From the IMG/VR virus record IMGVR_UViG_3300021407_000013, positions 1 through 64,000 of that record: a DNA stretch of 64,000 nucleotides. The stretch is one strand, 5' to 3'. The notes beneath the pieces are model-generated. The model did no database searches. It was not told the DNA's origin and was given only the letters and a program-made list of their open reading frames with translations. Below, one piece after another: positions 13,730 through 35,314 of this stretch. The stretch comes from a virus. Made by a program: the position numbers and the translations under genes. Every line of letters starts with the position of its first letter. Within the stretch, counting starts at the first letter, position 1.

Positions 13730-14089
13730 CTATGGGGTAGGAACGACTACCCACGCGCCAGCTTGTCGCGCGTACATTTGCCCATCATTGGGCGCATCTT
13801 CAAGTCCGTCAGCTCCAGCTGGACCTGTAGCGCCCGGATCGCCAACTGGACCCTGAGGCCCTTGTGATCCTGTAGCGCCTGTATTGCCAGGTGGACCCTG
13901 AGGACCCTCAGGTCCTTCAGGTCCTTCCGGTCCTTCAGGTCCTGGATCACCCTGGGGTCCTTGTGGACCGGGAGGGCCTGCTGGACCTGCTGGACCGGGA
14001 ACTCCAGGCGCTGCTGCCATTTGGAAGTGCTCCATACTTTCAGCATATGCGATGCCGCCTCTGCTGCCGGGTCCTGGGCCATATGGCAT
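13730..14089 (-). CDS. Collagen-like fibre with fibritin-foldon-like C-terminus
   Basis: Long Gly-Pro-X run then [19 protein letters not shown] (cf. foldon IPEAPRDGQAYVRKDGEWV). Confidence 0.8.
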
Positions 14090-14098
14090 CTAAGGCTC

Positions 14099-15687: not shown

Positions 15688-16247
15688 TAGAATACTGACC
15701 TCTTAGCTTGTCCTGTTTTGAATAGGTCAGTAACAATACCTAACGGACCCCTTTCACTAGGGTCTTGAGGCGCACCGCGTTCTTTGGATCGGGTGATTGT
15801 GATTTTTTCGGCGATCTCAGGGTCGCGGTCTTTAGTTGGTTTCTCTGTGATCTCCATTTCAAAACTTGTAAGCTTCTCACCAGCATTTTCCTCGATCTGT
15901 GCATTGACAGCAATAGCTGCCTCAGCGCGAAGTCTTTCACCAGTTTTCTTGCTGACTTCTCGATTGCTGACAACAAGCTCAACAATCTTCTCAGCAGGGA
16001 TAGGTTTATCAATTGAATACATATATGGGATAAAGTATCCTTTAAATTGATCCAATTCCGTAACACGAACCATTCCATATTTTACGTGGAATTGTGCAAT
16101 AATGTCAATCTGCTTCTGGTCTAATTCTCCAGAAAGCTTAATTTGACCTCCAATAGGAATCATTTGTCTGCGATAATTTTTGAAATCAGGCAAACGATAT
16201 TGGAAGTCTATATTTTGATGTGTGCCGTTAGCAACAAACATTTGCAT
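15687..16247 (-). CDS. Hypothetical virion-module protein
   Basis: 186 aa directly after capsid gene. Confidence 0.55.
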   Translation of the reverse strand: MQMFVANGTHQNIDFQYRLPDFKNYRRQMIPIGGQIKLSGELDQKQIDIIAQFHVKYGMVRVTELDQFKGYFIPYMYSIDKPIPAEKIVELVVSNREVSKKTGERLRAEAAIAVNAQIEENAGEKLTSFEMEITEKPTKDRDPEIAEKITITRSKERGAPQDPSERGPLGIVTDLFKTGQAKRSVF

Positions 16248-16345
16248 TTGGATTAATCCTTGCTACCAAGGGACGGCCGTGGGGTAGCAATCCACGACCG
16301 CCCAGGATCGTCCAGTTTCGAGAAAAAGATCCCTACAGCTGGAGA

Positions 16346-17374
16346 TTACTCGTACTGCATCGTGGCGATAACAATGCACTCAGGACGGACACCCCATCCC
16401 GAAGTGATGCGCCACTCGGACAGCACATCAATGGCGCCGCCGGCGAGCGGAGTGGGAATTTCACGAGGCGCTGCCATATCCGCGTACATCAAAGTGCAAG
16501 CCTCGATGCCAGGCGCAATTTTGGCAATTTCGTTCGTGTTGATCTTGCTGCCGACCGGCTTTTTGACTTCAGGCATAACGATTAGGACAACGTCATTGTT
16601 GCCACCGCCGACGCCCTTGCCGATCAAAGTATCATCATAAACCCAGGAAATAGTATCGCCGTTATTTCCCAGAACCGTCTCGAACATCCCCTTGGTTGAC
16701 ACAGAACCTGCGCCTTCGCGCTGGAACTGGACAACCTGGACGATGTTTTGATATTCCATCGCCGCTAGGGTTCTCTGCGGACCAAGAATTGTAAAGTGCC
16801 GCCCGATACCGAGTTGATTTGTCAAGGTCTTCAGCGCGCTGATCTGTGTGATAAGCCACACACCCAACTCGCCGTTGTCGTATGTCACAACGGTGTCATT
16901 TCCGTTGCTATCAGGCGGCAGCGATACGGCTGTGGCGCCCTGTGCGTTGAGAAGCCCTTCGCCGTTAATGGGATTCATCCCATATAGAAGAGCATTGCGA
17001 GCGAGTTGGAAATGGCCCTGTCTCATGCCGAGGCGTTGCGCCTCAACCATGTTAAGGCCCCAATTGCCCATTGCCGCGGTGTCGTGATGATCATATTCCG
17101 CGCGCACCCTCAGAAGATAGCTGGCGGTAGAGATCATCGAGAGAGCGATGCTGACGCTCGGCAGCTGGTTGTAGGCAGCTTGCCCAGCAGCCATGCGCGT
17201 GCGAACGTCGAGACGCTTCATGTAAACATAAAGGTCTCCATCACTCAATCTGACAAGCGGTTCCTCGCCGGCCAAAGTGCTAAAAGCCCCTGATGCCTGG
17301 ACATAAGGGAGAATGATCCCGGGTTCAACGAACGAAGGATTAACAATGGCATATGACGGATTGACGCTACCCAT
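16346..17374 (-). CDS. Major capsid protein
   Basis: 342 aa, high-expression codon bias, LYG....GEGLLN and C-terminal SGWGVRPE motifs; position. Confidence 0.8.
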   Translation of the reverse strand: MGSVNPSYAIVNPSFVEPGIILPYVQASGAFSTLAGEEPLVRLSDGDLYVYMKRLDVRTRMAAGQAAYNQLPSVSIALSMISTASYLLRVRAEYDHHDTAAMGNWGLNMVEAQRLGMRQGHFQLARNALLYGMNPINGEGLLNAQGATAVSLPPDSNGNDTVVTYDNGELGVWLITQISALKTLTNQLGIGRHFTILGPQRTLAAMEYQNIVQVVQFQREGAGSVSTKGMFETVLGNNGDTISWVYDDTLIGKGVGGGNNDVVLIVMPEVKKPVGSKINTNEIAKIAPGIEACTLMYADMAAPREIPTPLAGGAIDVLSEWRITSGWGVRPECIVIATMQYE

Positions 17375-17430
17375 GGAAGTTCACCTCATATTTTGAGAGG
17401 CGGGTTGCGCCTCAGTTGCACCGTTTTCGA

Positions 17431-18069
17431 TCAGATTTCGAGTAGAATTGTGTCACCTGAGCGGTTCCAAGTTGCGAAACCAGTCGTCGAATTGTAAACG
17501 ACTGTCATCGAGTTTCCAAGATTGTACCCGATAACATTCATGCCAGCCGGCGGCAGAGCAATACCGCCAGCAGCAGTTGCCGTAACCCACTGGTTCGTAA
17601 TATTGAAATACAGTGGGGCAGGTGCCAGTCCAACAGGAACTGGATAACCTGGAGGCGCCAATTGTAGCAAGAGCGCCGGATCCATCGCCATAGGAATACG
17701 CGCACGGCTTCCAAAGCGATAGAAGTTCACAAGCATACCAACATTCGCTTGCGGAACTGGACTCGAAACGCTGTTGATCATAGCGTGATTCTGGTTGAAC
17801 ACGCTGATTCCGGTCGGTGCCACCGCCGCAGTCGCTCTCATGATAGAGTTCTGCAACGCTGGGTCCCAAAGGCTGCCAGTCGGCGGCAGATGCTCAGCAA
17901 TTGGAACGCCGCCAAACATCGGCAGCGTTTCAGTCGGCGCCAATTGACCACCGGTCAACTGATACCGGATTGCGGGATCATCCATTGCCATACCCTGCAT
18001 CATCCCGTCGAGCGAGATTTTGAAGGTACCACTGGCATTTGTGGTAAGAACAGGATTAATATTGATCAT
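17431..18069 (-). CDS. Putative capsid decoration/cement protein
   Basis: 212 aa between protease/scaffold and capsid; same codon bias. Confidence 0.55.
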   Translation of the reverse strand: MININPVLTTNASGTFKISLDGMMQGMAMDDPAIRYQLTGGQLAPTETLPMFGGVPIAEHLPPTGSLWDPALQNSIMRATAAVAPTGISVFNQNHAMINSVSSPVPQANVGMLVNFYRFGSRARIPMAMDPALLLQLAPPGYPVPVGLAPAPLYFNITNQWVTATAAGGIALPPAGMNVIGYNLGNSMTVVYNSTTGFATWNRSGDTILLEI

Positions 18070-18107
18070 GACCCAAAAGCTCCTTAATGGTTAAGCCGAC
18101 GACTCCC

Positions 18108-19907
18108 TCAGTTGTTGCTGTTTCGTATGCCAACAAGTTGGCGCTTCGGCGCAGCAAACTGACTCATCCACGCAGACGGTCTGCCGACGAAAGTGGAAAT
18201 CGTGCGACCTGTGGAATCTTGGCTCTTGATCTCCCGTAGGAAGTCCTCACCCATATCTGCTGGGTGCAGACCGGCTTGTTCAGCATCGGAATAGATCGTA
18301 TTCTCGATGTTGGCGAAGGCAGCATCATCCGCAATGACCTTAAGGTCAATATCCTTCCAGGCAGTGGAATGTTGCTTGAGGCCTGTGGCAAGACGACGGC
18401 GATACGCAATCAAGGTCTCCCCATCGAGCGGGCGCGGAGCTTTGCCTCCATGCATCAAATAGACGCGATCCGCCTTGACCTGCGAATCAGCCATTGCTGC
18501 ATAGTCAGCGTCGGTCATCTGGCGCGGCAGTTTAGAGGCCACGTCAGCAACGCTTTTACGGAGCGTTTCAAGCTCGGCCGCATCAGCCTTTGCCTTGGCA
18601 TCGGCCTTTTCTTTTTCCTCGGCATCCGTCTTGGCTTTGGCTTCCGCGTCCGCCTTGGCCTTGGCTTCTGCATCAGCTTTTTCGCGCTCGGCGGCGTCCA
18701 TTTTGGCACGGGCGTCAGCCTTCTCCTTTTCGTCGGCGTCTGCCTTGGCTTTGTCAGCCTTCTCTTTCTCCTTCGCGTCCCAAGCATCGCTTACGGTCTG
18801 CTTGACTGAATCCTTGATAGAATCAGCGAAAGATGCAAAATAAGAATCAAATCGGGCCTTGTCAGCCTTTTCCTTTTCTTCTGCATCAGCCTTTGCCTTG
18901 GCCTCATCTGTCTTGCGAGCGGCTTCAAGAGCCGCAGCTTTATCGTCGTCTGCCATAACAAGTTCCTTTTCTGCGGTTGACACGCCACTCGGCGATAGTC
19001 CTTTATCCCAAACACCCACAAAGCAAACCGCTATGTGGTCTAGCAACCTTGGCTTACCTTCAATAAGTAATTTGTTACCATTCCTCAGTTTAATCTTTTG
19101 ATCTTCGCCGGTAAGAACCACACAAGGCGAAGTGCTTAATTGATTTTCTGCCATTATCTTGGCAGCATGTTCATCCCAAACTTTGACAATAGCCCAAACT
19201 TCATCATCTTTAATATATGGAATAAACACAGAACCAATATTTCTATCAAGATATTCTTTGGTATCTAAAGTTTTCGTACCTGGATGTTCAAAAATAACAG
19301 GAAGCCCATTGCAACGCTCAAGAAACTCTTGATTCAAATAAATCGACTTGTCGCGCCACACATGCTCTTTAATACCACTTCGATACGATAATCCAGTGCC
19401 AGTAATACGAATATTGAACATCGTAAGGTTGGCATAACGCTGCGGTGATACTAGATCACCTGCTGCCATTAATTTGGCAATACCTAATTCGTCAGCATGT
19501 AATTTCTTTAAAGTAACAACCAAACCAGGATGTAATGGCTCGGGCGGCATTTCGAGTGGCGCCCACTTAAATCCTGTATGCTCTTCATCTAGTCTTGGAG
19601 GTACAAATTCGTCATCTACTTCTTGAATATAGGTCGTATAATCAACTATTAAGCTTGGTCTATCACCGTTTCCTTCGTTTGTGGAGATGCGGCGAGAGAG
19701 TTCAAGTAATTCTCCAGAAGGGTAAAATCCAATTTCTTCAGAACATTCTCTAATGGCTGCATCGACTGATGTTTCGTTTGCTTCCCGTTTTCCACCAGGT
19801 AGATCGTAAAATCCAGAATAATCTCCTGATTCTGAACGCTTAAGAAATAATGCCCTCTTGTCAGGTGTGACAAAGAGGATGCCGGAAGCATTGATTGTCT
19901 CCGTCAT
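18108..19907 (-). CDS. NUDIX hydrolase fused to DUF2213-like prohead protease and scaffold
   Basis: Nudix box GGKREANETSVDAAIRECSEEIG; CNGLPVIFEHP and LDHIAV protease-like motifs; KADA repeat scaffold. Confidence 0.8.
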   Translation of the reverse strand: MTETINASGILFVTPDKRALFLKRSESGDYSGFYDLPGGKREANETSVDAAIRECSEEIGFYPSGELLELSRRISTNEGNGDRPSLIVDYTTYIQEVDDEFVPPRLDEEHTGFKWAPLEMPPEPLHPGLVVTLKKLHADELGIAKLMAAGDLVSPQRYANLTMFNIRITGTGLSYRSGIKEHVWRDKSIYLNQEFLERCNGLPVIFEHPGTKTLDTKEYLDRNIGSVFIPYIKDDEVWAIVKVWDEHAAKIMAENQLSTSPCVVLTGEDQKIKLRNGNKLLIEGKPRLLDHIAVCFVGVWDKGLSPSGVSTAEKELVMADDDKAAALEAARKTDEAKAKADAEEKEKADKARFDSYFASFADSIKDSVKQTVSDAWDAKEKEKADKAKADADEKEKADARAKMDAAEREKADAEAKAKADAEAKAKTDAEEKEKADAKAKADAAELETLRKSVADVASKLPRQMTDADYAAMADSQVKADRVYLMHGGKAPRPLDGETLIAYRRRLATGLKQHSTAWKDIDLKVIADDAAFANIENTIYSDAEQAGLHPADMGEDFLREIKSQDSTGRTISTFVGRPSAWMSQFAAPKRQLVGIRNSNN

Positions 19908-22834: not shown

Positions 22835-24340
22835 TTACCAAAGCTCTGAATCACCCAGAGAAGTACATACTCCGTAGCAAAAGCAATCAACCAAATCGTC
22901 TTCTTGGTCTGGCACGCCAACATTAAAACTATGAACTTGCTTAATGAGATGATTAGCGTGTCTTTGTTTAAAATCCACAGTCTTGTTATAAGCTTGAGCA
23001 GAGTATTTCACCTTGCCAACGGAAACATATCCACTAGCATTGAGAGCACGCGGTTGTTTGCCAAGTTGTACCAACTTAGCGTCAATACCAGTTGCCAAAA
23101 AGTTGCGTCGATTACATTGTTGCAAAAGGACAATTCCAGAGCCCTTTTCTTCAATCAATGTTCCGATTGACCCTCGCCGCGCCCTACAAGTTCTGGCATA
23201 TTCTTCAAGTTTCAAATAAATATTGGGTATCCAATCTATCAACAAATCAGCAGGAACTTGCAATATATCATAATCAAGTATTGTTAAAGGATGCTCAAAA
23301 CGCTCATTAATGGCCCAATAAATTACTGCGGTAGCATCATGTTTCGCGTCAGCTTTAATGCCAGTATCAATAGTGGCAAAGACGCAATCAGTCCACTCAG
23401 GAAAGTTGACAGGATGTCCGTCAATAAGTAAGTCTTTTTCGAGGAAAAACGTACCACCAGGCGGCTGCGGATTTTGCTGATAAAGCGATTCAAAATCTCT
23501 GATTCCCAGGATTGTTCGCTTTCGTTCCAAAGCCTGTGCGTCTTCCCATTTAGGCCAAAGTGCCTCTCCAACGGGGCGTTCCAAAGGATCATCAGCGGTT
23601 GCAAAGGCTGGAAGATTTATAACCGTCCATTGATCTCCGCCCTTTTCTGCTTCGTGAAGAAGCATCCCACCCAGATCTTCTAAATGCCATCTAGTCTGGA
23701 TAAGGATAATTCTAGCATCTGGCTTAAGGCGCGTGACCAAATCCGATTTGTACCATTCATAAGTTTTGGTGCGCACCGTTTCGGATTCAGCGTCCTCTCT
23801 GGACTTAACGGGATCATCAATAATTGCGAGATCAGCGCGTCTTCCAGTAATTGCGCCTCCCACTCCCGCCGCGTAATATTCACCTCCGTTTGTGGTTTCC
23901 CATCGAGAAGCGGCTCTGTTTGATTCATCTAGCGAATAGCCTAAAATTGGTGCCTTCAGAAGTATTCTGTTACGCACCTTACGGCCAAAACGCTCAGCAA
24001 GCTCTCCTGTATGTGAACAACCAATTACGGAAGAACGTGGAAATTTTTTAAACCAATAAGGTGGTAGTAACTCTGATGTATAAGTAGACTTGGCGCTCCC
24101 AGGAGGAGCAAATATCATTAAGCGATCAATTTCTCCGGATATGACCTTTTCGAGGGCTTTGATAATATGTTTATGATGACGTGCTGGTTCAAAACCAAAA
24201 TCGTGTACGCACTCTTCACACCAAGAAAGTAAATCGCTCTGACAAGAACGACGCCAAGCTTCAGCACGGTATTTGTAAATTTGACGCTTTCGTATTGTGT
24301 CAAATTGGGATGGTTGTGAAGGTTCAAATCCCATTGACAC
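22835..24340 (-). CDS. terL: Terminase large subunit
   Basis: Walker A APPGSAKST, GAITGRRADLAIIDDP, QTRWH..DL, YQQ.P; nuclease IDTG...DDLVD. Confidence 0.92.
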   Translation of the reverse strand: MSMGFEPSQPSQFDTIRKRQIYKYRAEAWRRSCQSDLLSWCEECVHDFGFEPARHHKHIIKALEKVISGEIDRLMIFAPPGSAKSTYTSELLPPYWFKKFPRSSVIGCSHTGELAERFGRKVRNRILLKAPILGYSLDESNRAASRWETTNGGEYYAAGVGGAITGRRADLAIIDDPVKSREDAESETVRTKTYEWYKSDLVTRLKPDARIILIQTRWHLEDLGGMLLHEAEKGGDQWTVINLPAFATADDPLERPVGEALWPKWEDAQALERKRTILGIRDFESLYQQNPQPPGGTFFLEKDLLIDGHPVNFPEWTDCVFATIDTGIKADAKHDATAVIYWAINERFEHPLTILDYDILQVPADLLIDWIPNIYLKLEEYARTCRARRGSIGTLIEEKGSGIVLLQQCNRRNFLATGIDAKLVQLGKQPRALNASGYVSVGKVKYSAQAYNKTVDFKQRHANHLIKQVHSFNVGVPDQEDDLVDCFCYGVCTSLGDSELW

Positions 24341-24981: not shown

Positions 24982-24997
24982 AGCAAGAATCGTGCCG
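24982..24997 (-). promoter_or_regulatory. Sigma54-type (-24/-12) promoter facing the structural operon
   Basis: Minus strand CGGCACGATTCTTGCT vs consensus TGGCACG-N4-TTGCW. Confidence 0.55.
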
Positions 24998-25030
24998 CAT
25001 TAAATTTTGTTAATGTTTACTCTGTTACCG

Positions 25031-25080: not shown

Positions 25081-25620
25081 TTGGAGGTACCATTGCAAGA
25101 CCTGTTCACGCCGCAAGCCCAAAATGACTTTAAGTGGGTAGTGGCAGTTTTCGCTAATACTGGAGCAACAGAAGCCATTAGAAAGGCTAATGAAGTACCA
25201 CTTAAAACATTCTATCCAATACGATTTAATCACAAAGGACTACCAGTGCCTTTGTGGCGCCACTACTTATTCATTGAGTTCCGCAATTCCATAACAGCTC
25301 AAGTATGTCGGAGCACTACTAAATTCATTAAAGTCCTCACAATGCGCGATGAGGAAGGTATAGAATATCCAGTAATGGTACGTAAAAATGCTATTGATGA
25401 ACATATGGGATTATTATTAGCTGGTAGATTCAATAGTAGATCAACTGTTAGACGCTATTATGGAAGAGGATCATTAGTTAGAGTATTGGAAGGTAATTTT
25501 ATTGACAAGAAAGTACGATTAGAATCAGCTGTAACACCAGATATGCCTGGTACCCGTAAGGTAGCCATAGATATAAATGGTTGGAAGGGTAGCATAGAAA
25601 TCTGGAAGTTGGCGCTGTAA
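25081..25620 (+). CDS. NusG/RfaH-family transcription antiterminator
   Basis: NGN motif PLWRHYLFIEF and KOW motif GSLVRVLEGNF. Confidence 0.8.
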   Translation: MEVPLQDLFTPQAQNDFKWVVAVFANTGATEAIRKANEVPLKTFYPIRFNHKGLPVPLWRHYLFIEFRNSITAQVCRSTTKFIKVLTMRDEEGIEYPVMVRKNAIDEHMGLLLAGRFNSRSTVRRYYGRGSLVRVLEGNFIDKKVRLESAVTPDMPGTRKVAIDINGWKGSIEIWKLAL

Positions 25621-25749
25621 AATGTACGATCATAACGACGAAGATGAAGATTTTCACGAATATCCTCCATTCACGCATCCTTGGCGTGAATTCTTTACTT
25701 TCATGTGTTTCCTAATAGCAATAATCTGGGTGCTATGGAAGGCTATATC

Positions 25750-25959
25750 ATGGCTAATACAAGCACTATAATCAAAGAGATCAGAGATAATATCAACTCT
25801 GCACTAGAGGGAGGGTTCACATTTGACGATTATACGGATGAAGACCTTGCGGGTGATCTTATCGCGTATGCTGAGGACATGGAGAATAAGACGTTTGAAC
25901 AAGTTCTTCAAGCAGTCAAAGCAGTCCGCGCTGAAGGAATAGCTTGTCAAAAGAGGTAG
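25750..25959 (+). CDS. Small acidic hypothetical protein
   Basis: Start re-assigned to ATG 25750. Confidence 0.55.
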   Translation: MANTSTIIKEIRDNINSALEGGFTFDDYTDEDLAGDLIAYAEDMENKTFEQVLQAVKAVRAEGIACQKR

Positions 25960-25962
25960 CAA

Positions 25963-26481
25963 ATGGATGACTCTTGGGAATACTGGGAGAAGAATCACTT
26001 CTTTATTTTAGTGGGAAAAATTGCAGTTCCATCTAATATGGAAGGTTGGTCTGCTTGGTTTGAAAAAGCCTACGGCACTAATGAAACCCAAGTAGCATTT
26101 ACCAAAACAGATATTGTTGAAGTTTCAACTGTATTCCTAGGAATCAATCATAACTTCCGCTTCGATGGGAGCGCACCAATTCTGTTTGAGACTATGGCGT
26201 TCCATAAGCTCGATACTCCCAAGAATGTTCTAGGTCACGAAATAGAATGGGATGGTGAAGAATGTATGCGTTGTGGTACTTGGGAAGAAGCTGAGCTACA
26301 ACATAAGATAATGGTAGCAGAAGTTATCAGTAATCATTATCTTGGTACTCCAGAACAGCTTAAAGAAATGGTAGAAAAAATCTTCAAGGAGAGCACAGAA
26401 TGGCAAACGATCTCGGACCAATCGGACCCACCAACGACTATCCCAAAGGGAAACTCAACAATGAAGACGAAGGAGGATTGA
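25963..26481 (+). CDS. Hypothetical phage protein
   Basis: VSTVFLGINHNF...PILFETM motif recurrent in phage hypotheticals. Confidence 0.6.
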   Translation: MDDSWEYWEKNHFFILVGKIAVPSNMEGWSAWFEKAYGTNETQVAFTKTDIVEVSTVFLGINHNFRFDGSAPILFETMAFHKLDTPKNVLGHEIEWDGEECMRCGTWEEAELQHKIMVAEVISNHYLGTPEQLKEMVEKIFKESTEWQTISDQSDPPTTIPKGNSTMKTKED

Positions 26482-26654
26482 TCACAGGCGTTAGTCATGA
26501 TAAAGGAAATGTCATTATTAACTTCGGTAAACCAGTAGCATGGGTAGCATTTCCTCCAGAAATGGCATTTCAATTCGCTCGATCAATTGCCACACACGCC
26601 CATGCTGCTATGACTGATATTACGGAGACTACTGATGGGAACGAAAAAGGATGA
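26400..26654 (+). CDS. Hypothetical protein
   Basis: SD AAGGAG; GKLNNEDEG...VIINFGKPVAWV. Confidence 0.6.
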   Translation: MANDLGPIGPTNDYPKGKLNNEDEGGLITGVSHDKGNVIINFGKPVAWVAFPPEMAFQFARSIATHAHAAMTDITETTDGNEKG

Positions 26655-26883
26655 GACTGTAATATGCTGTATGAGGGCCTCGCCAAAAGGCCCAAATACT
26701 GACAGCATCTTATCCAGTTGCAACAAATGTGGCCATCCTATCTGGATCGCCAAAAGCACTCCAATCATTGAAGGTGCGCGCTTTCTGTGTATGCAATGCG
26801 TTCCATGGAACGAAGTGACAGATGTAGCACCGCCGACGATGGATCAAATGTCTGACGTTCTGAGATCCAAAAATAGCAGGTAA
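26635..26883 (+). CDS. Zn-finger hypothetical protein
   Basis: CxxC...CxxC. Confidence 0.55.
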   Translation: MGTKKDETVICCMRASPKGPNTDSILSSCNKCGHPIWIAKSTPIIEGARFLCMQCVPWNEVTDVAPPTMDQMSDVLRSKNSR

Positions 26884-26887
26884 CGAA

Positions 26888-27361
26888 ATGAAACTCTTAG
26901 AGGTAGCAAGCGAAGGTGACTTACGTTACTGGATCCAAGAATGGATATTTGAATGTGAAGGGAGGCTTTCGTTAGAGTGGGTTGAACCTATGATGTATGG
27001 GAGCACTGTTGGCGCTCCAGATTGCAAAATCAAATTTGCCAATCATACCATAGGATTAGAACTCAAATATCTATTGAGTACGAAGAAGGGCATAAAATGG
27101 ACAGTGCGTCCAGCTCAAAGGCGCTACCATCATATGAACGTAAGAAATGGTGGTCGAAGTGCGTTATTAGCATGGATAGCAGCCAAAGAAGAACTTGTGC
27201 TAGTACGTGGCGATCATATACCACTACGAGACTACGCCTCAGATAAGGAGTCTGGTTGCGCCCACGGATTAGTCAAATTGGACTCATTTGGTATGTCAGA
27301 TAAACAAGCCATATTTAGTTTAGAAAAATTGATCTTCAACGACGAGTATTGGGAGAGATAG
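26888..27361 (+). CDS. PD-(D/E)xK nuclease, Holliday-junction-resolvase/VRR-NUC-like
   Basis: GAPD...LELK...RPAQ...GG motif. Confidence 0.7.
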   Translation: MKLLEVASEGDLRYWIQEWIFECEGRLSLEWVEPMMYGSTVGAPDCKIKFANHTIGLELKYLLSTKKGIKWTVRPAQRRYHHMNVRNGGRSALLAWIAAKEELVLVRGDHIPLRDYASDKESGCAHGLVKLDSFGMSDKQAIFSLEKLIFNDEYWER

Positions 27362-27409
27362 ATGGTTAAGATGATTCCGCCACAATACAAAAGAGGAGGA
27401 TCACACGCC

Positions 27410-27607
27410 ATGCCACCAAATGACAAGATCGCTCATCATACTCTGCACCAGAAGGTCCAGAAGCTCGATGGCTACAAATATCCAGGCATTATTGTGGCTA
27501 TATTCACTACCACAGAAGGTCGAGTCCGTTACGTGGTGGAAGCTGACCATCCCGATTTTCGTGGTATGCTTCATATATTCTCTGATTCTCAACTTGAGGA
27601 AAGGTAA
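27410..27607 (+). CDS. Hypothetical protein
   Basis: SD GGAGGA; start re-assigned. Confidence 0.55.
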   Translation: MPPNDKIAHHTLHQKVQKLDGYKYPGIIVAIFTTTEGRVRYVVEADHPDFRGMLHIFSDSQLEER

Positions 27608-27853
27608 ATGAAGTGCCAAGTTTGCCAAGGCAAAACATATCTTGAAAGATGGGCTTGCCCAGAATGTCTTGGCAGCGGCATAACGTCATGTTGTGAAGGA
27701 AACCCAAATACAAATAAGTGGTTTGAAGCGCCCATCTCAGACCGATTAAAAGAAGCTGAAATATTGATTGTCAGTACAAAATTTGATAAAGATGGTAATT
27801 TAGTAAAAATCAAAACTCTCGTAGATCAAAAACAGGATGATAAAAATGAATGA
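27608..27853 (+). CDS. Small DnaJ-type Zn-finger protein
   Basis: CxxCxG...CPECxGxG. Confidence 0.55.
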   Translation: MKCQVCQGKTYLERWACPECLGSGITSCCEGNPNTNKWFEAPISDRLKEAEILIVSTKFDKDGNLVKIKTLVDQKQDDKNE

Positions 27854-28058
27854 GCCAGAACGCCCGATGTTTGAGTGTGACGCAGAAGTCTATACATGCC
27901 CATATTGTATGAAAGCTGTTGTGGTATATGTAGAATTAGATGGCAGTGGTATCATTTCCAGACCTGAATATGATTTAATTGCTAATTGGGTTTATCATTC
28001 CGCGTGTTGGGATAAACAGATGAGAGAGCATCCGCCAGGAGAACCAAATGTCAAATGA
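27846..28058 (+). CDS. Hypothetical protein
   Basis: CPYC...HxxC; coupled. Confidence 0.5.
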   Translation: MNEPERPMFECDAEVYTCPYCMKAVVVYVELDGSGIISRPEYDLIANWVYHSACWDKQMREHPPGEPNVK

Positions 28059-28368
28059 TAAAGCAGAGCTCAGAGCGTTTCTCAAAGAGCGCGATGATTT
28101 ATTCAAAAATCCAACACTAGAAGCAGCGCAATCTTGGTGGCTCAAGGCTGGTCATCCGCAATGGGCAAGAGAAGATGTACCACTAGCCGCGGTCCACAAG
28201 GCACGATTACAGTGGTTAGAATCCACAGATGCTATGATAGAAGAATCTATCAAATGGCTACAAGAGCATGATTATTCAATCGAATGGCAAGGAGCGCCAC
28301 CACTCACGCCAGAACGCCGCGATGCTGATAGAGTGTCTTTGGGCAAGAAACCGCTAGGTCAAACATGA
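28048..28368 (+). CDS. Hypothetical protein
   Basis: SD AGGAG. Confidence 0.55.
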   Translation: MSNDKAELRAFLKERDDLFKNPTLEAAQSWWLKAGHPQWAREDVPLAAVHKARLQWLESTDAMIEESIKWLQEHDYSIEWQGAPPLTPERRDADRVSLGKKPLGQT

Positions 28369-28541
28369 AGAGACTCATCATAGCTCTATTCACAGTGTGG
28401 TTTTTATTTGTCGCAGCAATGGTCTACTCAGTTTTGGCTTATGGACCATCAGACCATTCTAATAGTGCTATGGACTATGATGAGTCACAATTCCTATTCT
28501 GGCACGTAATCATGCCAGTTCTGCACTCAAATATGAACTAG
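28365..28541 (+). CDS. 58-aa membrane protein (not in ORF track)
   Basis: ATGA overlap; MKRLIIALFTVWFLFVAAMVYSVLAY. Confidence 0.5.
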   Translation: MKRLIIALFTVWFLFVAAMVYSVLAYGPSDHSNSAMDYDESQFLFWHVIMPVLHSNMN

Positions 28542-28550
28542 GAGGTCGCT

Positions 28551-28973
28551 ATGGGAGAAGCCAAACGTAAATATCTTCTTGTCAAAGTTGTATCCAAAAA
28601 ACCTGAATTCCAAACGACAAGGCTCAGCACAGGCTGCAATTGTCTGAACTGTGGCATCTTGATTGACGCCGCCACCAGCGTTAACCATAAGCATACACCA
28701 TACCCAGGTGCCATAGCCATCTGTATGATCTGCTCTCATATAATGGCATATGACGAGAGAATTCATCTGCGAGAGCTCAATGATGAAGAAATATTGTTAA
28801 TAGCTGGTGACAAAGATATACTCTTCTTGATCAACGGCCTTGGTGGCGCCAAGAAAGAGTGGGAATCAAAACATGGCGAAGGATCGTGGGGTAAAACCAG
28901 CAGGGACCGGCTCGCACAAGCGCAAGCCAGAGTTGAAGCTAAACAGGAAGCGGCCAGGACTAAGGGAGAATGA
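28551..28973 (+). CDS. Zn-binding hypothetical protein
   Basis: SD GGAGG; CxxC pairs. Confidence 0.55.
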   Translation: MGEAKRKYLLVKVVSKKPEFQTTRLSTGCNCLNCGILIDAATSVNHKHTPYPGAIAICMICSHIMAYDERIHLRELNDEEILLIAGDKDILFLINGLGGAKKEWESKHGEGSWGKTSRDRLAQAQARVEAKQEAARTKGE

Positions 28974-29172
28974 ATATGAATGCGCCGCCTGCCATAAGGT
29001 CTTCACCAAAGGAGTGTCGGATGAAGAAGCTCTGGCGGAAGCTGCGGTATTATTTCCTACTGTACCAATTGAAGAAACCAGTCTAGTCTGCGAGGACTGT
29101 TTTCAGGAAATGATGGCAGACATCAAAGCCAGGCCATGGGCCTACCCACCTTTACCAGATGAGGATAAATAA
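28840..29172 (+). CDS. Zn-binding hypothetical protein (start uncertain)
   Basis: CAAC...CEDC. Confidence 0.5.
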   Translation: MVAPRKSGNQNMAKDRGVKPAGTGSHKRKPELKLNRKRPGLRENEYECAACHKVFTKGVSDEEALAEAAVLFPTVPIEETSLVCEDCFQEMMADIKARPWAYPPLPDEDK

Positions 29173-29810
29173 TGGCATATGACCTGTTTGATAAGGATGG
29201 CAAGCGCAAACGGCGTGAGGGCTCTGGGGTAGCGCCCAGACCACTCGATGAAGTAGAGCGTGAAATCGTCAGAGCCGACATGGCTGAGTTAATCGCCAGA
29301 GAAAAAGAAAATGGTGATTGGGCTAAGTGGGAGGAATCGCAGCGCCCAATTTCGCAACTGCGATCCCTTGACCGCGATATAGTACATATCACTGTTACAC
29401 TGACAATTGACGGCCACATCATCCCAAACCCACCAGACACAGAAGATGTAGTCAGACGTGAGATGGAATCACGCTTCCTCCGCTATGAGCGCCAAGAAAT
29501 GCCCAGTCGCATTATGGCCCTCGAACATGACAGGAGGTTACATCGACCTGCACCAGAGGTTGGTGATAGAGGAATATTCAATGGTTATATCGCACCAAGT
29601 TCTCCACGTTTCTATACGGGTCAGATTACTCCTGAGATCTGGGAACTCTTTGTAGGGCGCGCTCCAGTCAATGATGACATAGAGCGCGCCAACTGCTACC
29701 AAGAAGGTATGCTTGGCCATCAAAGCTGCGGTTGGTGCCACGACTGCATGAAGCCACGCTATGCTTGCGGCCATCTATGTTTCCCAAGTAGTTCCACACC
29801 AAGTAGGTGA
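29172..29810 (+). CDS. Hypothetical protein with Cys-rich C-terminus
   Basis: Coupled ORF; RANC...GH..CGWC..C. Confidence 0.55.
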   Translation: MAYDLFDKDGKRKRREGSGVAPRPLDEVEREIVRADMAELIAREKENGDWAKWEESQRPISQLRSLDRDIVHITVTLTIDGHIIPNPPDTEDVVRREMESRFLRYERQEMPSRIMALEHDRRLHRPAPEVGDRGIFNGYIAPSSPRFYTGQITPEIWELFVGRAPVNDDIERANCYQEGMLGHQSCGWCHDCMKPRYACGHLCFPSSSTPSR

Positions 29811-29813
29811 CTC

Positions 29814-30116
29814 ATGAAAAAGAAAACCAAGAAAATAATCAAACTCAGAAAACTCATCCGCGAAACCATTAGTGAGTCTATGGACTACAACTTCCACGGC
29901 CCTAGAGGCGCCACTGGTCCGCAAGGTCCAATGGGTCCTCAAGGTCCGCCAGGCCCACCAAACACTTCAATTCATGGCCTAGCCGAAGAACTGGCATGGT
30001 TGAAGAATGAAGTAGCTCTGATGAAGTCAGAGATTGACGATCGCGCACCACGCCCATCCAAACGTAAAGTCAGGGAGTTTACACATGAAAATAAAGGACT
30101 ACCACCCAAAAACTGA
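29814..30116 (+). CDS. Protein with short collagen-like repeat
   Basis: GPRGATGPQGPMGPQGPPGPP. Confidence 0.55.
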   Translation: MKKKTKKIIKLRKLIRETISESMDYNFHGPRGATGPQGPMGPQGPPGPPNTSIHGLAEELAWLKNEVALMKSEIDDRAPRPSKRKVREFTHENKGLPPKN

Positions 30117-30300
30117 AGAAGAGGCCGTCGGTTGGTTGATGGAAGAATCATGCGAAGTGGTTCTCACTATAGGTCGCTGCATGAGGTTTGGAATTGAAAC
30201 TGTGCATGAGGGCCGCACCAATCGTCAGATTCTCCTCGATGAGATGAATGACCTTCGCAATGCCCTGTTTGAGGCTGAGACATGGATAGCGAGGAAGTGA
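30085..30300 (+). CDS. MazG-like NTP pyrophosphohydrolase-fold protein
   Basis: LMEESCEV...LDEMNDL (EExxE..ExxD). Confidence 0.5.
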   Translation: MKIKDYHPKTEEEAVGWLMEESCEVVLTIGRCMRFGIETVHEGRTNRQILLDEMNDLRNALFEAETWIARK

Positions 30301-30479
30301 TGACTAAGGAGCAAATCAAAATGACTAGTTGCGCCCAGTGCAAGAAAGAGTTCCAGCCTAAGACACCACAGCATAGGTTTTGTTCAATGGACTGTTCCAA
30401 ACGGTTCTATCGCCAACTACGAATGTTAAAGCGAGATGAAAGATGGCAGAAGATTAATGGATTGAATTTACGTGAATAA
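30300..30479 (+). CDS. Small Zn-finger protein
   Basis: CAQC.KEF...RFCS.DC; similar to 34072..34260. Confidence 0.55.
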   Translation: MTKEQIKMTSCAQCKKEFQPKTPQHRFCSMDCSKRFYRQLRMLKRDERWQKINGLNLRE

Positions 30480-30888
30480 TCTGTAGTAATGAGGGTGAGT
30501 GAATTTTTGAGGGATAAATTCTGACGGTCACCACCAAAGGTGGCCCTGAAACAGGTAAAACAGTAGACGGCCCCGACCTTTCGGCTGACCAGAAAACGCG
30601 CATAAACGACCGTACACGGGCGCGGACGCGCGGACGCATATTCCCTAGCGCGAATAGTCCGAGGGCAATGGGCCAGCCTCTAATGCGATTTAAACGCATA
30701 TCGCAAACGAGCGCATAGGCGACACATAGGCGACAAGCCTGTCAGTACATTACAAAAAATTAATGTTCGCAAACGTCGTTTGCGCTTGTATCGCACAAGC
30801 TAACGTGCTTTATAGGCGTTGCACCGCAAAACGCGGTGCGGGCGGCAGCTATGCGCTCCGGCCCTTTTCTAGCAAAAGGTCTAGTACA

Positions 30889-31383
30889 ATGCAAAACGAC
30901 AAGGTTAAGACTGCGGACGCTATCGCGCAAGTTAGCGCGGAAAACGCGGAATTGCGCGCTAGCGTTATTGCGCTCGTTAGTGCAATGCCTGCCGCTATCG
31001 CGGACGCCGTTAAGGCGGCAATCCCTGCCCCGACAACGCGCGCGCCTCGCACGGCTCGCGTTGCGGTGCAAATGTCCCCTGCGGACGCGGACGCCGCTAT
31101 GTGCGGTTTCGTTAAGAAAGGGCCGCGTCGCGATTTCTTTCTTGCGTTGCGCGGTCTCGCGGACGGCGTATATCCTTTGTCCGATTTCGCGGGCGTTTCG
31201 CTCGCGGACGCACAAGTTGTGTATCGTCGCCTTAGCGGCAATCGGACGGGCGGGCGCGTTACGGAAAGCTTTTTCGACCGATTAGGCTTTTCGCTCGCAA
31301 TCGACAACGAAACGCGCGGCAAGGCGGACGTTATCGTTACGCGCAAGGCGGACGAAAAGGCGGCTGACGAGGTCGTCGCCTAA
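30889..31383 (+). CDS. Hypothetical protein in compositionally anomalous (CpG-rich, TGR/YCA-free) DNA
   Basis: Start re-assigned to ATG 30889; own terminator downstream. Confidence 0.7.
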   Translation: MQNDKVKTADAIAQVSAENAELRASVIALVSAMPAAIADAVKAAIPAPTTRAPRTARVAVQMSPADADAAMCGFVKKGPRRDFFLALRGLADGVYPLSDFAGVSLADAQVVYRRLSGNRTGGRVTESFFDRLGFSLAIDNETRGKADVIVTRKADEKAADEVVA

Positions 31384-31391
31384 CGCGAAAC

Positions 31392-31421
31392 GGGCGGGCG
31401 CGCAAGCGCCCGCTCTTTTCT
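31392..31421 (+). terminator. Intrinsic terminator
   Basis: GGGCGGGCGC-GCAA-GCGCCCGCTC then TTTTCT. Confidence 0.75.
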
Positions 31422-31448
31422 TGCCCTCTAACTTCAGGACCAACAAAC

Positions 31449-31724
31449 ATGTCACGATCATTCTTCATAGGCGTCGCTGTGGTAGGCTCACTGATGGCGC
31501 ACCAAGTGGACCGAGCTCATGCTCAACTCACTCACATTCAACCGAGCGAACTGGTTGACGACTCAGTAGCTCAAGGCCATTTCAGGGAATGTTTGAGAAC
31601 CAGAAAGGACATTCACGGAAACGTGGACGCTTTTGGATGCAATCAGATACTCAAAACTGAGACCAGGAATCCCACCTGGAGTTGCTCCAACAATCTGTCC
31701 ATCCAGACCTGCGATCAGGACTAA
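31449..31724 (+). CDS. Small secreted protein
   Basis: Signal-peptide-like N-terminus ending AHA-Q; four Cys. Confidence 0.55.
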   Translation: MSRSFFIGVAVVGSLMAHQVDRAHAQLTHIQPSELVDDSVAQGHFRECLRTRKDIHGNVDAFGCNQILKTETRNPTWSCSNNLSIQTCDQD

Positions 31725-31727
31725 CTG

Positions 31728-31750
31728 ATGGGGCGCAAGCCCCATTTTTC
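31728..31750 (+). terminator. Intrinsic terminator
   Basis: ATGGGGC-GCAA-GCCCCAT then TTTT. Confidence 0.75.
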
Positions 31751-31769
31751 ATGCCCAGTTCGTTCAAAC

Positions 31770-32010
31770 CATGACTTGAGTTTGATGATGATGAGTCCAT
31801 GACTGTCAACCCATGATTTGAATTTGATTCAAAGATCATTCACCATGGTCATTTTCATCCATTGACTGGTGATATCATGAGTGTCATTGGCTGATGGCTG
31901 TGCACCAACGTAGATTGATGATGATGATTTCATGGTGACCATTGGCTGATGGGAGCGCCAAATCATGGTCTGAAAATGTCACCGACGTCGTCACTACCAT
32001 TGATCTACTG
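31770..32010. repeat. Non-coding degenerate TGA/TCA/TGG-rich repeat tract
   Basis: TTGATGATGATGA x2, CATTGGCTGATGG x2, CCATGAYTTGARTTTGAT x2. Confidence 0.7.
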
Positions 32011-32049
32011 AAATTCCGAAATTGACCAGAAGCGCCCCATACTATCCTA

Positions 32050-32215
32050 TTTGTCCTGTTTGTCTTATTTCAATAAAAATAAACAGGACACGAAAAGCGC
32101 AACGATTACAAGGGGTTACCACTGATTGTCCGGTTTGTCCGGTTTGTCCGTTTATTTTTCATACCTTTCGCGCGAAGCCTGATATACAGCTAACTGCCCC
32201 ACGCAAACAGGACTC
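32050..32215. repeat. Iteron-like TGTCC repeats, possible replication origin
   Basis: TGTCCGGTT-TGTCCGGTT-TGTCCGTT, TGTCCTGTT and inverted AACAGGAC copies downstream of helicase gene. Confidence 0.5.
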
Positions 32216-32298
32216 AATTGGTGAGCCCGAAAACCCTTATATCCCAGTAACTTACGCTCGTCTGTTAATGTAAAACATTAACCGTACAATTCTACTGA

Positions 32299-33855
32299 TC
32301 AGAAACGTACATGGCCACTCATGATACTGGTCTCTGTAAAAGTAGGATATTCCCACTCTTGGCTACCATTACCATAATCATATTCTGTTTTGATTCTAAA
32401 ATTCATCAATTCTCTACAGACTACCAATTTCGGAATAACATGCACATTCATTCGCTCGCTATTACCTGGGCTACCACTGGTATATTTATCACTACCAACA
32501 ATATTGAGTGGTCTACCATTTTTAGAATATTGTATCAAACCATTAACTACTAATGGCATCAATTCTTTAAATTGGATACCAAATTCACGCTCATTTAATT
32601 TATGTCTGAATTGGGCAGTAGCATTATAATCCATCAATAGTTTCTCCTTGATAACCAAATAGCCCTTGTCCTCGTAATATTTGACAAATGGTAATTTACC
32701 TGAACATAGAATATCAAACCACCATCGCTCTACACCAGCCATGGACGCTGTTTTTTGGTCAATTTGCGCCTCAGTAACGAGGGCAGTTCTGAGATTGACA
32801 TCAATTTTATAATTCAATAGATAATGCATGAGCGCTTCAAGACCGTCATTATTGAGCATTTCATATTCTAATGAATCAAAATACTCTTTCATATCTTTCT
32901 GGGCACTACTGACATTCAATACAAAGAACCTACGCTCATCATGAGATGCTGGTACTATCCAATCAGCATTACCTATAATGATAGATCTGATATAATTTAT
33001 GACACTGCGACCTGGCAAGTTCTTTGGATTGATAAATAGACTATCTCCAGTAATAATATGTTTCAATGTGGACTCATGGGCTTTATCACCAGCCCAAATG
33101 GCTTCTTCCAGACATAACAATATGACCTTCTCAAGATGATCATTATGATTGCCAAATATGCTATTCTTATTATCAATTGGGAGATATAATTTTGTCTTAC
33201 GCTCATTATTCTTTCCATTCATCAACCTGCCTAATATGAGGGCGAAATATGATTTGCCAATACCTTTGAGACCTTTCAACACAACTGATGTGCCGAGTTT
33301 ATTCCACGGCTCTTGTATTAACTGGGCGCACCAACACATAAGCCAATGATAATGGGTTTCGTTACCGCTGCATATGATATTCTTCACATAATCCAAAAAT
33401 AATACACATGAACCTTCTTTTGGATCAATTGCAAATCCTGGCCATGTATTATATACACCAGATCGCATTGTTTTGGAATCAAATTTATATTTGGGATCGA
33501 ATACTATTCCACGCTCATACGTGCGCCTCATGTGGTATTCCAACCACAATTTGCTTACTGGAAATGGCTTTGCATTTCCTTCATCATCTTTGGTAACAAT
33601 CTTAACATTTTCCAATGAATCTATAAAATCCTTCTTGGTCATTAAATAGTATTCACCATCTATCCTCTCATTTAGAATCATAAATTTGCCTAATACCAAT
33701 ATGATAGCGTAATGTTGATCTACCCAATCAATAGCTCCTTGTTTGGAATCTAATTTGGGCGCGCCATGACTGGTTGTTTGGCTCGTTTGAAATCTAGGAT
33801 CATCAACGATCTTTTTGATGCGTTCTGAATTTGGGAATAGGTCTTCATCAGCCAT
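32299..33855 (-). CDS. SF3 (D5/DUF5906-like) DNA helicase
   Basis: Walker A GLKGIGKS, Walker B LCLEEA, N..W.VP...DERRF. Confidence 0.85.
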   Translation of the reverse strand: MADEDLFPNSERIKKIVDDPRFQTSQTTSHGAPKLDSKQGAIDWVDQHYAIILVLGKFMILNERIDGEYYLMTKKDFIDSLENVKIVTKDDEGNAKPFPVSKLWLEYHMRRTYERGIVFDPKYKFDSKTMRSGVYNTWPGFAIDPKEGSCVLFLDYVKNIICSGNETHYHWLMCWCAQLIQEPWNKLGTSVVLKGLKGIGKSYFALILGRLMNGKNNERKTKLYLPIDNKNSIFGNHNDHLEKVILLCLEEAIWAGDKAHESTLKHIITGDSLFINPKNLPGRSVINYIRSIIIGNADWIVPASHDERRFFVLNVSSAQKDMKEYFDSLEYEMLNNDGLEALMHYLLNYKIDVNLRTALVTEAQIDQKTASMAGVERWWFDILCSGKLPFVKYYEDKGYLVIKEKLLMDYNATAQFRHKLNEREFGIQFKELMPLVVNGLIQYSKNGRPLNIVGSDKYTSGSPGNSERMNVHVIPKLVVCRELMNFRIKTEYDYGNGSQEWEYPTFTETSIMSGHVRF

Positions 33856-33876
33856 GGTGCGCCCGCCCATACGTGA

Positions 33877-34071: not shown

Positions 34072-34260
34072 TTATGCTGCGAATAGGTCACGCTTCTTGG
34101 GCGCCTCAGCCTCTTTTTTAGCTTTTTTGGCCTTCCAATAGAAGCGCCCTCTGCATGGATCTGAACAAAATCTTTGTGTTGGTTGAACTTTAACAAATTC
34201 AGTGCCACAATAGGCACATTTAACGATGAATTTGCTCATATCTAAATCTGACATCATCAC
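34072..34260 (-). CDS. Small Zn-finger protein
   Basis: CAYC..EF...RFCS..C; SD GGAGG. Confidence 0.6.
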   Translation of the reverse strand: MMMSDLDMSKFIVKCAYCGTEFVKVQPTQRFCSDPCRGRFYWKAKKAKKEAEAPKKRDLFAA

Positions 34261-34386: not shown

Positions 34387-34677
34387 ATGTCCGAAGATTC
34401 ACCCGAGACAGCCAGACAGCGCGCCACAAGGATCTGGCGGAATGCGTGGATTCAAGGCCGTACTGAGACTCAAGATCAGGAAGAAGAATTAGCCAAAGTA
34501 ATTGAGCAAGAGAGGTTACTCAATCAGGGGCGGACTGCTCTCATTAGAGCTATTACAAAGGTGATATCTGAGCAGAGGCACTCATTCAATTTGGTACATT
34601 ATAAGTCAATGATTAGTAGGCGGAAGCGGAAATTATTGGAAGAGAAATTGAGGCGGTTGGAGGCTGAGAATGACTAA
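34387..34677 (+). CDS. Hypothetical protein
   Basis: Downstream of TTAATT-N17-TATAAT; start re-assigned. Confidence 0.5.
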   Translation: MSEDSPETARQRATRIWRNAWIQGRTETQDQEEELAKVIEQERLLNQGRTALIRAITKVISEQRHSFNLVHYKSMISRRKRKLLEEKLRRLEAEND

Positions 34678-35314
34678 TCCAATACATGACATAGATCCAG
34701 AACCTACTGTCATGTGGGAAGAGGACTATGAACGCCTCAAGAAACGACAGAAAATGGACGCTGCAATTGAGCGCTCCAATAAGGAGAAAGCTGACGCTAT
34801 TGCTCGTGAATTATATAAAGAGCAATTGAAGATCAAAGATAAGATTGAATATACAGAAGAGTTGGCGACAGAGATTTGTGAGAGGATCAGTGCTGGTGAG
34901 CTATTGATCAACATATGTCGTGATTCACATATGCCAACCGTGCGCCGCTGTTCAGCATGGCTCAAATCTGAAGCTGATTTCCAAGCACTCTATAATATGG
35001 CTATTGCAGATAGATTGACTATATTTGAAGAGGAAGTGATCTCAATTGCTGATGATGCAGCACGTGATATGAAAGAAATACAGAAATCTGGGAAAACGAT
35101 TAGAGTTCAAGATGCTGAGGTCATTGCGCGAGCGAAGCTCAGAGTTGAGGTGCGCTTCAGGCATTTGAAAGCTGGGCGACCTGGTAAATGGGGTGATAGC
35201 ACCACTCTCATCACTAAATCAGAAGATGAAAATATTGCTGAGATGCCATTGTCTGAGCTGGAAAAGAAGATTGCTGAACTTGAACACAAGGATCGGGTGG
35301 TCAAGGCAGTGTGA
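34670..35314 (+). CDS. Terminase small subunit-like protein
   Basis: YTEELATEICERISAGE.L..IC...HMP....W...F...Y HTH pattern and RAKLRV..R of Sf6/P22-like TerS. Confidence 0.7.
   Translation: MTNPIHDIDPEPTVMWEEDYERLKKRQKMDAAIERSNKEKADAIARELYKEQLKIKDKIEYTEELATEICERISAGELLINICRDSHMPTVRRCSAWLKSEADFQALYNMAIADRLTIFEEEVISIADDAARDMKEIQKSGKTIRVQDAEVIARAKLRVEVRFRHLKAGRPGKWGDSTTLITKSEDENIAEMPLSELEKKIAELEHKDRVVKAV

Follow-up and report, generated by a model that had tools for sequence, protein, structure and literature searches.

A three-base word kept out of one expression unit of a phage genome, beside a tract dense in the same word

We analyse here a window consisting of the first 64 kb of a 75,145-bp IMG/VR record of an uncultured phage (IMGVR_UViG_3300021407_000013, labelled G000; CheckV completeness of 94%), and show that one expression unit in it, located at 30676-31433 and called the cassette below, is under a DNA-level and strand-symmetric selection against a word of three bases. 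The word is 5'-YCA-3', which on the two strands gives the set TGA, TGG, TCA and CCA (TGR/YCA), a set that is closed under reverse complement. The word is nearly absent from this one transcription unit and has been kept out of it for a long time, at the cost of a ban on tryptophan and on many dipeptides in the encoded protein. The pattern implies a reader of DNA that has three-base specificity and is important enough to shape a protein sequence.

The void and its conservation

A sequence-only reading of the window had counted two TGR/YCA words in 30676-31433 and about 50 in the non-coding stretch 31741-31980. Our recount gives exactly two in the former, at 30742 and 31365, and 51 in the latter, with the genome-wide density of 0.0767 per base (whole record) predicting about 58 in 758 bp. 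When 240-bp windows are slid over the whole record (mean of 18.4 words, standard deviation (sd) of 3.9), both extremes of the genome are found at this locus, the minimum of 0 and the maximum of 52 lying only about 1 kb apart. The largest gap between neighbouring sites in the whole record is the 623 bp between 30742 and 31365, with the next largest being 107 bp. On the sense strand of the cassette, TGA and TCA occur once each while TGG and CCA do not occur, and both surviving sites sit in the context CTGAC/GTCAG.

The deficit persists under every null that was considered. Under a first-order Markov null built from the stretch's own composition, 21.2 sites are expected against the 2 that are present (Poisson P = 1.5e-7). 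With the protein held fixed and the codons drawn from genome usage, the gene in the cassette is expected to have 26.1 sites (sd 3.8), where 1 is observed. When the gene's own synonymous codons are permuted, 13.4 sites (sd 2.5) are expected against the same 1, with 0 of 5000 simulations being that low, so that the desert holds under a codon-aware null, on which the sequence-only reading had staked it. The codon-order null applied to four lineages gives 13-18 expected sites against 0-3 observed.

The deficit is also specific to the word. Relative to the rest of the genome, CCA/TGG is depleted to 0.01 and TCA/TGA to 0.06, with the next word, ACT/AGT, being at 0.33, and RCA/TGY is retained or even enriched in the cassette (GCA/TGC 1.9-fold) while YCA/TGR is nearly absent. 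As a guard against choosing the word post hoc, 178 strand-symmetric di- and trinucleotide sets were scanned. TGR/YCA has the top gap score of the 178 in the genome, with 47.8 expected sites in the gap, versus a best score of 29 for any word in 42 control phage loci. These control loci come from unrelated or more distant phages having a related helicase (26-40% identity), and none of the 42 has a comparable void. The void covers promoter/leader, coding sequence and terminator and is strand-symmetric; an asymmetric word of 3 nucleotides (nt) avoided on either strand is what is expected for a short-word target of the Ssp/Dnd type. An origin by C-to-T deaminase hypermutation is rejected because the stretch is rich in guanine plus cytosine (GC) and in CpG, with no clear excess of YTA/TAR.

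The void is conserved. In all loci of relatives, which were taken from viral and metagenome contigs and have 72-88% protein identity, both the void and the dense tract are retained, with the voids being as follows.

L002: void of 766 bp, 0 sites
L003: void of about 750 bp, 4 sites
L005-L008: void with the same two exceptions as in the window

The differences between the window's own sequence (WIN in the alignments) and L002 fall 37/24/62 on the three codon positions, and 30889..31383 is therefore coding. A random single substitution in the void has a chance of about 18% of creating a site, and the void persists through 25% nucleotide divergence. For WIN versus L002, with 123 nucleotide differences and only 0-1 sites, the probability of this by chance is 0.82 to the power 123, i.e., 2.5e-11, and therefore the void is under continuing purifying selection, which keeps the unit free of 5'-YCA-3' on both strands.

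A sister lineage (L017/L018, with the helicase 62% identical) has a GC-rich unit at the same place, with the same palindrome and a terminator, where the cassette protein is a different one of 153 amino acids (aa), having only weak similarity to the 164-aa protein of the window (expectation value E 0.009). The L017/L018 cassette has 0 TGA/TCA in 727 bp but 14 TGG and 4 CCA, and the sister-lineage relatives L082 and L083 (77-80% identity) have 3 and 2 TGA/TCA, respectively, versus about 34 expected. The word avoided in the sister lineage is thus 5'-TCA-3' only: CCA/TGG, which is the Ssp consensus, is avoided together with TCA/TGA in the window's lineage and is kept in the sister lineage.

The two words have left matching footprints in the proteins. 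The absence of tryptophan from the 164-aa protein, as stated in the sequence-only reading, is confirmed and extends to the whole family: 12 proteins with 2000 aa in total, including three distant ones (P0010, P0011 and P0013) that were compared as protein only, have 0 tryptophan, and the residue after methionine can use a codon starting with C or T in 49 of 49 cases, never needing one that starts with A or G. By contrast, the sister family (18 proteins) has 48 tryptophans, and after methionine the G-start codons are allowed while the A-start ones are rare. The selection hence reaches beyond synonymous codons into the protein sequence. From these matching footprints it follows that the word differs between the lineages and that selection on DNA has shaped the proteins.

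The cassette, its protein and the dense tract

The features of the cassette are as follows.

30676..31433, no strand: TGR/YCA-free cassette, with 2 sites in 758 bp; GC 58% versus 43% for the genome, CpG observed/expected 1.8
30683..30699, no strand: palindrome ATGCG-A-TTTAAACGCAT, conserved and probably an operator or promoter element, lying at the edge of the void on its 5' side
30747..30766, no strand: leader inverted repeat ACATTA-N8-TAATGT, which is conserved among WIN, L002 and L003
30821..30839, plus strand: leader hairpin GCACCGC-loop-GCGGTGC, with the stem retained and the loop different in L002 and L003
30889..31383, plus strand: 164-aa gene, its product having a predicted long N-terminal helix (residues 5-44) and a winged-helix-like C-terminal domain (61-153)
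31392..31415, plus strand: predicted intrinsic terminator that closes the void on its 3' side; the next TGR/YCA is at 31434

By its sequence layout, 30676-31433 is one self-contained expression unit, made up of the palindrome, a structured leader, the 164-aa gene and the terminator. The boundaries of the unit match the palindrome and the terminator in all lineages, and in every relative the void begins just upstream of the palindrome. The palindrome core TTTAAACGC is invariant in 5 of 5 aligned sequences, the sister lineage included, and the palindrome has no other close match within the window. A scan for sigma-70 promoters found none upstream of the 164-aa gene. The leader inverted repeat has a 17/20 look-alike at the start of the late operon (24997-25016), which is not significant, and a link between the two was rejected. 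A hammerhead ribozyme at the 3' end of the cassette, where CTGACGAG and GAAA precede the terminator hairpin, was also rejected: the stems misfit by eye, and Rfam covariance models run on 30000-32600 gave nothing relevant at E up to 1, hammerhead ribozymes included. As for RNA folding, the unit has z = -7.6 with 20 shuffles; in the comparison with 12 control windows, the sense strand has z = -5.3 against 0 to -5.0, so RNA structure was dropped as a special feature. The corresponding values elsewhere are -3.3 for the antisense strand, -5.8 for L002 and -3.6 for L017.

Note also that CGGAC(G) is strongly over-represented and oriented over the unit (window 30620-31420; L002 5760-6520), with 9-11 sense versus 1-2 antisense copies in WIN, L002 and L005. 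Some of the copies encode alanine-aspartate; the leader and the terminator, both non-coding, hold others in L002. The 9-bp iterons at 32125-32154 have the complement, GTCCG, as their core. With 3 copies in L003 and 1 in L017, the feature is lineage-specific.

The 164-aa protein is rich in alanine and arginine, with CGC/GCG being strongly enriched in the stretch. It has nine close homologues among 5.8 billion proteins, to which a full profile search adds three distant ones; no Pfam family matches it, and a protein atlas search gave no usable match. The structure prediction that the sequence-only reading had called for (AlphaFold, predicted local distance difference test score of 71.5) has as its best fold match the OmpR/PhoB effector domain, a weak match with Z of 5.4 and a root-mean-square deviation of 3.5 A over 75 residues. 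The Foldseek match to Fur (E 0.097) and the matches to Fur/MarR-type domains are weak as well, and the C-terminal domain resembles winged-helix DNA-binding domains only weakly. The protein is probably a dimeric DNA-binding protein.

Downstream of the cassette there come, in order, a variable small ORF (open reading frame), the dense tract, the 9-bp iterons and a converging helicase gene.

31449..31724, plus strand: small ORF of 91 aa with a hydrophobic N-terminus; variable slot
31730-31749: hairpin GGGGC-GCAA-GCCCC with a T-run, after the 31449..31724 ORF
31741..32020, no strand: non-coding TGR/YCA-dense tract, an array of ATGAT, TGATGA, TGGTGA, CATGA and CATTGGCTGATGG in both orientations
32045..32154, no strand: two clusters of 9-bp iterons of the GTTTGTCCG type, and AAACAGGACA as an inverted copy; assigned to repeat families D1, D2 and I12; conserved in relatives
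32299..33870, minus strand: D5/P4-type helicase (DUF5906; Pfam PF19263, E 7.7e-14), converging on the tract

With 32 words per 240 bp, the region 31449..31724 has the second-highest TGR/YCA density of the genome. From lineage to lineage, different small ORFs, some of them with a hydrophobic N-terminus, occupy the slot between the terminator of the cassette and the dense tract (window 31449-31724; L002 6569-6793; L017, on the reverse strand, about 9280-9460), and from this arrangement the slot looks like a variable one of the moron type.

The tract itself is non-coding, as the sequence-only reading had it, since the indels that separate relatives there have lengths not divisible by three. Compared with the genome, TCA/TGA is enriched 3.6-fold, ATG/CAT 3.5-fold and CCA/TGG 2-fold, and the density of TGA/TCA has z = 8.0 versus at most 4.4 in unrelated loci. 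The tract is conserved, with indels, in relatives; its commonest words over four lineages are ATGAT, TGATGA, TGATAT and TGGTGA, with CATTGGCTGATGG occurring twice, and its repeats (D3, I8 and I11) are of 6-13 bp in both orientations. In L007, at about 5150-5330 (aligned to window 31790-31850), the tract has about 100 bp or more of extra sequence. The iterons are spaced 9 bp apart and adjoin the helicase gene, which suggests an origin of the iteron type. Since the TGAT-type words adjoin the iterons and the helicase gene, the tract is most likely an origin or packaging control region that would be built of protein-binding repeats. Two observations provide a weak link between the tract and the void. 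One is that, of the 6 TGA surviving in cassettes, 5 stand in TGAC, while TGAT abounds in the tract. The other is that CCA/TGG in the tract is enriched 1.7-2.0-fold in the lineage avoiding CCA/TGG versus 1.25-fold in the sister lineage.

Possible readers of the word

We favour, tentatively, the reading that YCA is recognised by an enzyme that acts on one DNA strand at a time with a specificity of about three bases. Such an enzyme is favoured because the word is asymmetric yet avoided on both strands, because an ordinary DNA-binding protein would need more than three bases, and because the word varies from lineage to lineage in the way that enzyme specificities vary. The reader could be a nickase or an enzyme chemically marking DNA, and it could come from host immunity or from a competing element. 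The rest of the genome, having the word at normal density, would be hit, while the cassette would remain intact and transcribable on both strands, and its product could then be made while other parts of the genome are damaged or marked. Sparing a single gene is sensible only if the damage elsewhere is reversible; nicks and marks of this kind would be reversible, and there is a DNA ligase gene in the phage itself (53763-54917). Should the reader indeed be a modification system or an enzyme of immunity, its specificity could be read directly from the missing word, and the cassette protein would become a candidate counter-measure. A more far-reaching form of this reading, which we regard as doubtful, is that each lineage writes one cassette without the 2-3-base word of a DNA-marking or DNA-nicking immune enzyme of the host, or of its own modification enzyme. 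The gene would then stay expressible although the rest of the genome is hit, and the absent word would reveal which bases an undiscovered enzyme recognises. The cassette protein would in this view serve as the antidote, and in the tract the same agent would be exploited or sensed so as to time replication or packaging.

Several points weigh against the one-strand enzyme. The cassette protein has no anti-defence fold or family known to Pfam, PHROG, the fold searches or the protein atlas. If a frequent cutter destroyed the genome, one spared gene would help only with reversible damage or cooperating infections, which is assumed here. Moreover, the word-saturated tract has no necessary role in the model, Ssp is known for CCA and not for TCA, the word common to both lineages, and there is no support for the cassette being expressed first.

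Known systems provide partial parallels. In the Ssp phosphorothioate defence (SspABCD-SspE) the mark is at 5'-CpsCA-3', an asymmetric 3-nt word on a single strand, and SspE nicks foreign DNA (PMC9646914). CCA/TGG is likewise one of the two word pairs avoided in the cassette, and SspE nicking in vitro is not strictly limited to CCA; unlike for Ssp, TCA/TGA is avoided too and is the sole word in the sister lineage, and here no ssp genes are linked. DarT, which puts a reversible mark on DNA at a word of 3-4 nt on either strand and thereby blocks replication and transcription (PMC5179494, PMC7003065), is a precedent for the reading of 3-4-nt words on single-stranded DNA, but the known DarT words are T-rich (TNTC, TTT, TCT) and no eraser like DarG is seen in the phage. 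In T5, EcoRI or CRISPR targets are hit when they lie in the first-step-transfer DNA, the rest of the genome being protected by a pre-early function, and next to that region lies a long stretch of non-coding DNA full of repeats, palindromes and stop codons (bioRxiv 10.1101/866236). As with the pre-early DNA of T5, one region is set apart here from the rest of the genome beside a repeat-rich non-coding stretch. Unlike in T5, the target is a 3-bp word and not a 6-bp site, the region is one 760-bp unit and not about 10 kb, and the unit stands at the end of the early block. Phages are known to avoid motifs of 4-8 bp that are restriction sites, doing so genome-wide, and a limited literature search turned up no account of phages with trinucleotide voids at the scale of a gene. 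That a whole gene without a 3-nt word escapes a sequence-specific nuclease is known from ACA-less mRNAs, which resist MazF. That case is at the RNA level and single-stranded, unlike the present one, where the avoided set is strand-symmetric and covers non-coding DNA.

The sequence-only reading had proposed a context-specific DNA modification or binding at TGR/YCA. Its DNA-level, context-specific cause stands, whereas covalent modification finds no enzyme among roughly 50 scanned ORFs of the phage, and the modification idea gains little from the follow-up. In its full form, which we consider unlikely, the phage covalently marks its own DNA, on base or backbone, at TGR/YCA, the cassette is the only stretch entering the cell unmarked, and the tract is a mark-saturated origin or packaging signal, as with the GATC clusters in oriC of E. 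coli and the Dam sites of the pac site of P1. One agent would then explain both the void and the dense extreme. Context-specific thymidine hypermodification is moreover established in other phages (M6, ViI, SP10 and PhiW-14), in which the base is marked only in certain contexts (PMC8989533), although no unmodified 'island' is reported for them in the literature consulted. The present phage also has an atypical nucleotide-metabolism cluster, with a ThyX-type protein, a dATP/dGTP diphosphohydrolase domain, a flavoprotein and an HAD phosphatase. By contrast, a scan of roughly 50 ORFs with Pfam or PHROGs, covering almost all non-structural ORFs of at least 200 aa, found no methyltransferase, DpdA, dUMP hydroxymethylase, 5-hydroxymethyldeoxyuridine kinase or Mom, the small ORFs and the minus-strand structural block 855-19907 being outside the scan and novel enzymes escaping it. 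The scan turned up only the ThyX-type protein and nucleotide hydrolases, and none of the enzymes of the pathway in M6, ViI, SP10 and PhiW-14 is recognisable in this phage. Hexamer palindromes holding the word are slightly better kept than the others (ratio 0.80 versus 0.64), and 0 of 4 are strongly avoided in five genomes; the difference is small and not significant, since 13 of the 60 other palindromes are strongly avoided, giving a chance of about 0.37 that none of four is. Many 6-bp palindromes are strongly avoided, examples with observed over expected numbers being CTGCAG (0/16), CTCGAG (0/8), TCTAGA (1/13.5) and ATCGAT (3/21), with CTGCAG absent from all five related genomes (G000, G001, G002, G005 and G006). 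Going by such counts, the avoidance is a sign of heavy type II restriction pressure, which argues against a blanket protective modification. It should also be noted that known partial modifications leave host transcription unblocked, so that the need for one unmarked gene is unexplained, and that the word is at normal density in all other early genes.

Alternatively, the cassette could be insulated from a binding protein that nucleates on the tract and spreads over weak half-sites of the TGA type, the cassette being cleared to escape coating or silencing; the binder could possibly be the cassette's own winged-helix-like protein, the replication initiator or the small terminase. With this the tract agrees, consisting of conserved 6-13-bp repeats in both orientations (ATGAT, TGATGA, TGATAT, CATTGGCTGATGG) beside iterons and a helicase gene, as do the TGAC context of 5 of the 6 leftover TGA, the stronger CCA/TGG enrichment in the tract of the CCA/TGG-avoiding lineage, and the cassette protein, predicted to have a coiled coil and a winged-helix-like domain with closest folds among OmpR/PhoB, Fur and RepE-type DNA binders. 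The matches to these folds are however poor (Z about 5; Foldseek E at least 0.1), normal word density prevails in the rest of the genome, which is presumably expressed, and ordinary DNA-binding proteins need at least 6 bp, so that near-total removal of a 3-bp word from both strands over 760 bp far exceeds the need; we hold this explanation to be distinctly unlikely. The start sites of primases are triplets on single strands that differ between phages (T7, T4, SP6; compare DnaG of E. coli), so 5'-YCA-3' might instead be the template start triplet of the phage primase, with the tract as priming site and the cassette as primer-free zone. An asymmetric word read on both strands fits this, as does the position of the tract next to iterons and helicase gene. 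Yet the sole primase candidate is a weak match to an archaeo-eukaryotic primase-polymerase (E 1e-6) and not of the zinc-finger DnaG/T7 type, the skew of YCA versus TGR tracks gene orientation and not distance from the tract, and a 760-bp unprimed zone coinciding with a transcription unit has no evident benefit, making the idea very unlikely. The close match of the void with one presumed transcription unit, leader to terminator, would also be expected if the transcript avoided the words at which an mRNA-cutting toxin cleaves. The set avoided in both lineages (YCA+TGR; TCA+TGA) is closed under reverse complement, which is not what a one-strand reader of RNA would predict; depletion is not confined to the transcribed strand, with all four words depleted on the sense strand, and the folding of the unit (z -5.3 versus 0 to -5.0) lies within the control range and is judged not exceptional. 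Escape at the RNA level is therefore highly improbable. What remains is an absence of function, i.e., GC-rich DNA of foreign origin that lacks the words by accident of its composition and codon usage, to which the GC of 58% versus 43%, the strong CGC/GCG enrichment and the alanine/arginine-rich protein would correspond. This is scarcely credible: random reordering of the gene's own codons yields 13-18 sites, the void survives 25% nucleotide divergence and includes non-coding DNA, and a second lineage has a void with a different protein and word set. Composition or foreign DNA as the sole cause is thus rejected by the codon-order null and by the conservation.

Genomic setting and further observations

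The late genes, including those of the large terminase (22835-24340) and the portal, are on the minus strand and run leftwards from about 25000. A block of small genes on the plus strand occupies 25081-31724, and the cassette is the last self-contained unit there, i.e., it is placed at the end and not at the head of the rightward block. The plus-strand gene of an Sf6-type small terminase (34670-35314) is 10 kb away from the minus-strand large terminase gene and 2.7 kb from the dense tract. The helicase also matches the C-terminal part of the 'DNA primase' profiles of PHROG. A blastn search against a phage collection found nothing.

The assemblies G000 and G001 are circular permutations of each other, with breaks about 640 bp apart. 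Because of this permutation the contig ends are uninformative on the termini, and their use as genome ends was rejected. Three independent assemblies break within about 1.1 kb (window 1-3000), about 31 kb from the cassette: position 1 of G001 is window 644, the end of G001 is window 634, and position 448 of G002 is window 1. The clustered breaks may reflect an assembly-breaking feature or a real terminus region.

A phage protein at G000 68060-68635 (L016 4060-4635) has a C-terminal PEP-CTERM sorting motif (E 1.3e-6), which hints, by the motif, at a Gram-negative host with an exosortase system. Homologues of gp34 and gp33 of cyanophage Pam3 (54927-55745 and 56680-57234) flank the protein with the dATP/dGTP diphosphohydrolase domain, and this cluster stands upstream of the flavoprotein and the ThyX-type protein. 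Finally, (K/R)DLF(A/G) forms the C-terminal end of several unrelated replication proteins, namely the ligase (53763-54917), the HAD phosphatase (59317-59763), DnaE (61118-64024), the primase-like protein (51127-52365) and a zinc-finger protein (34072-34260).

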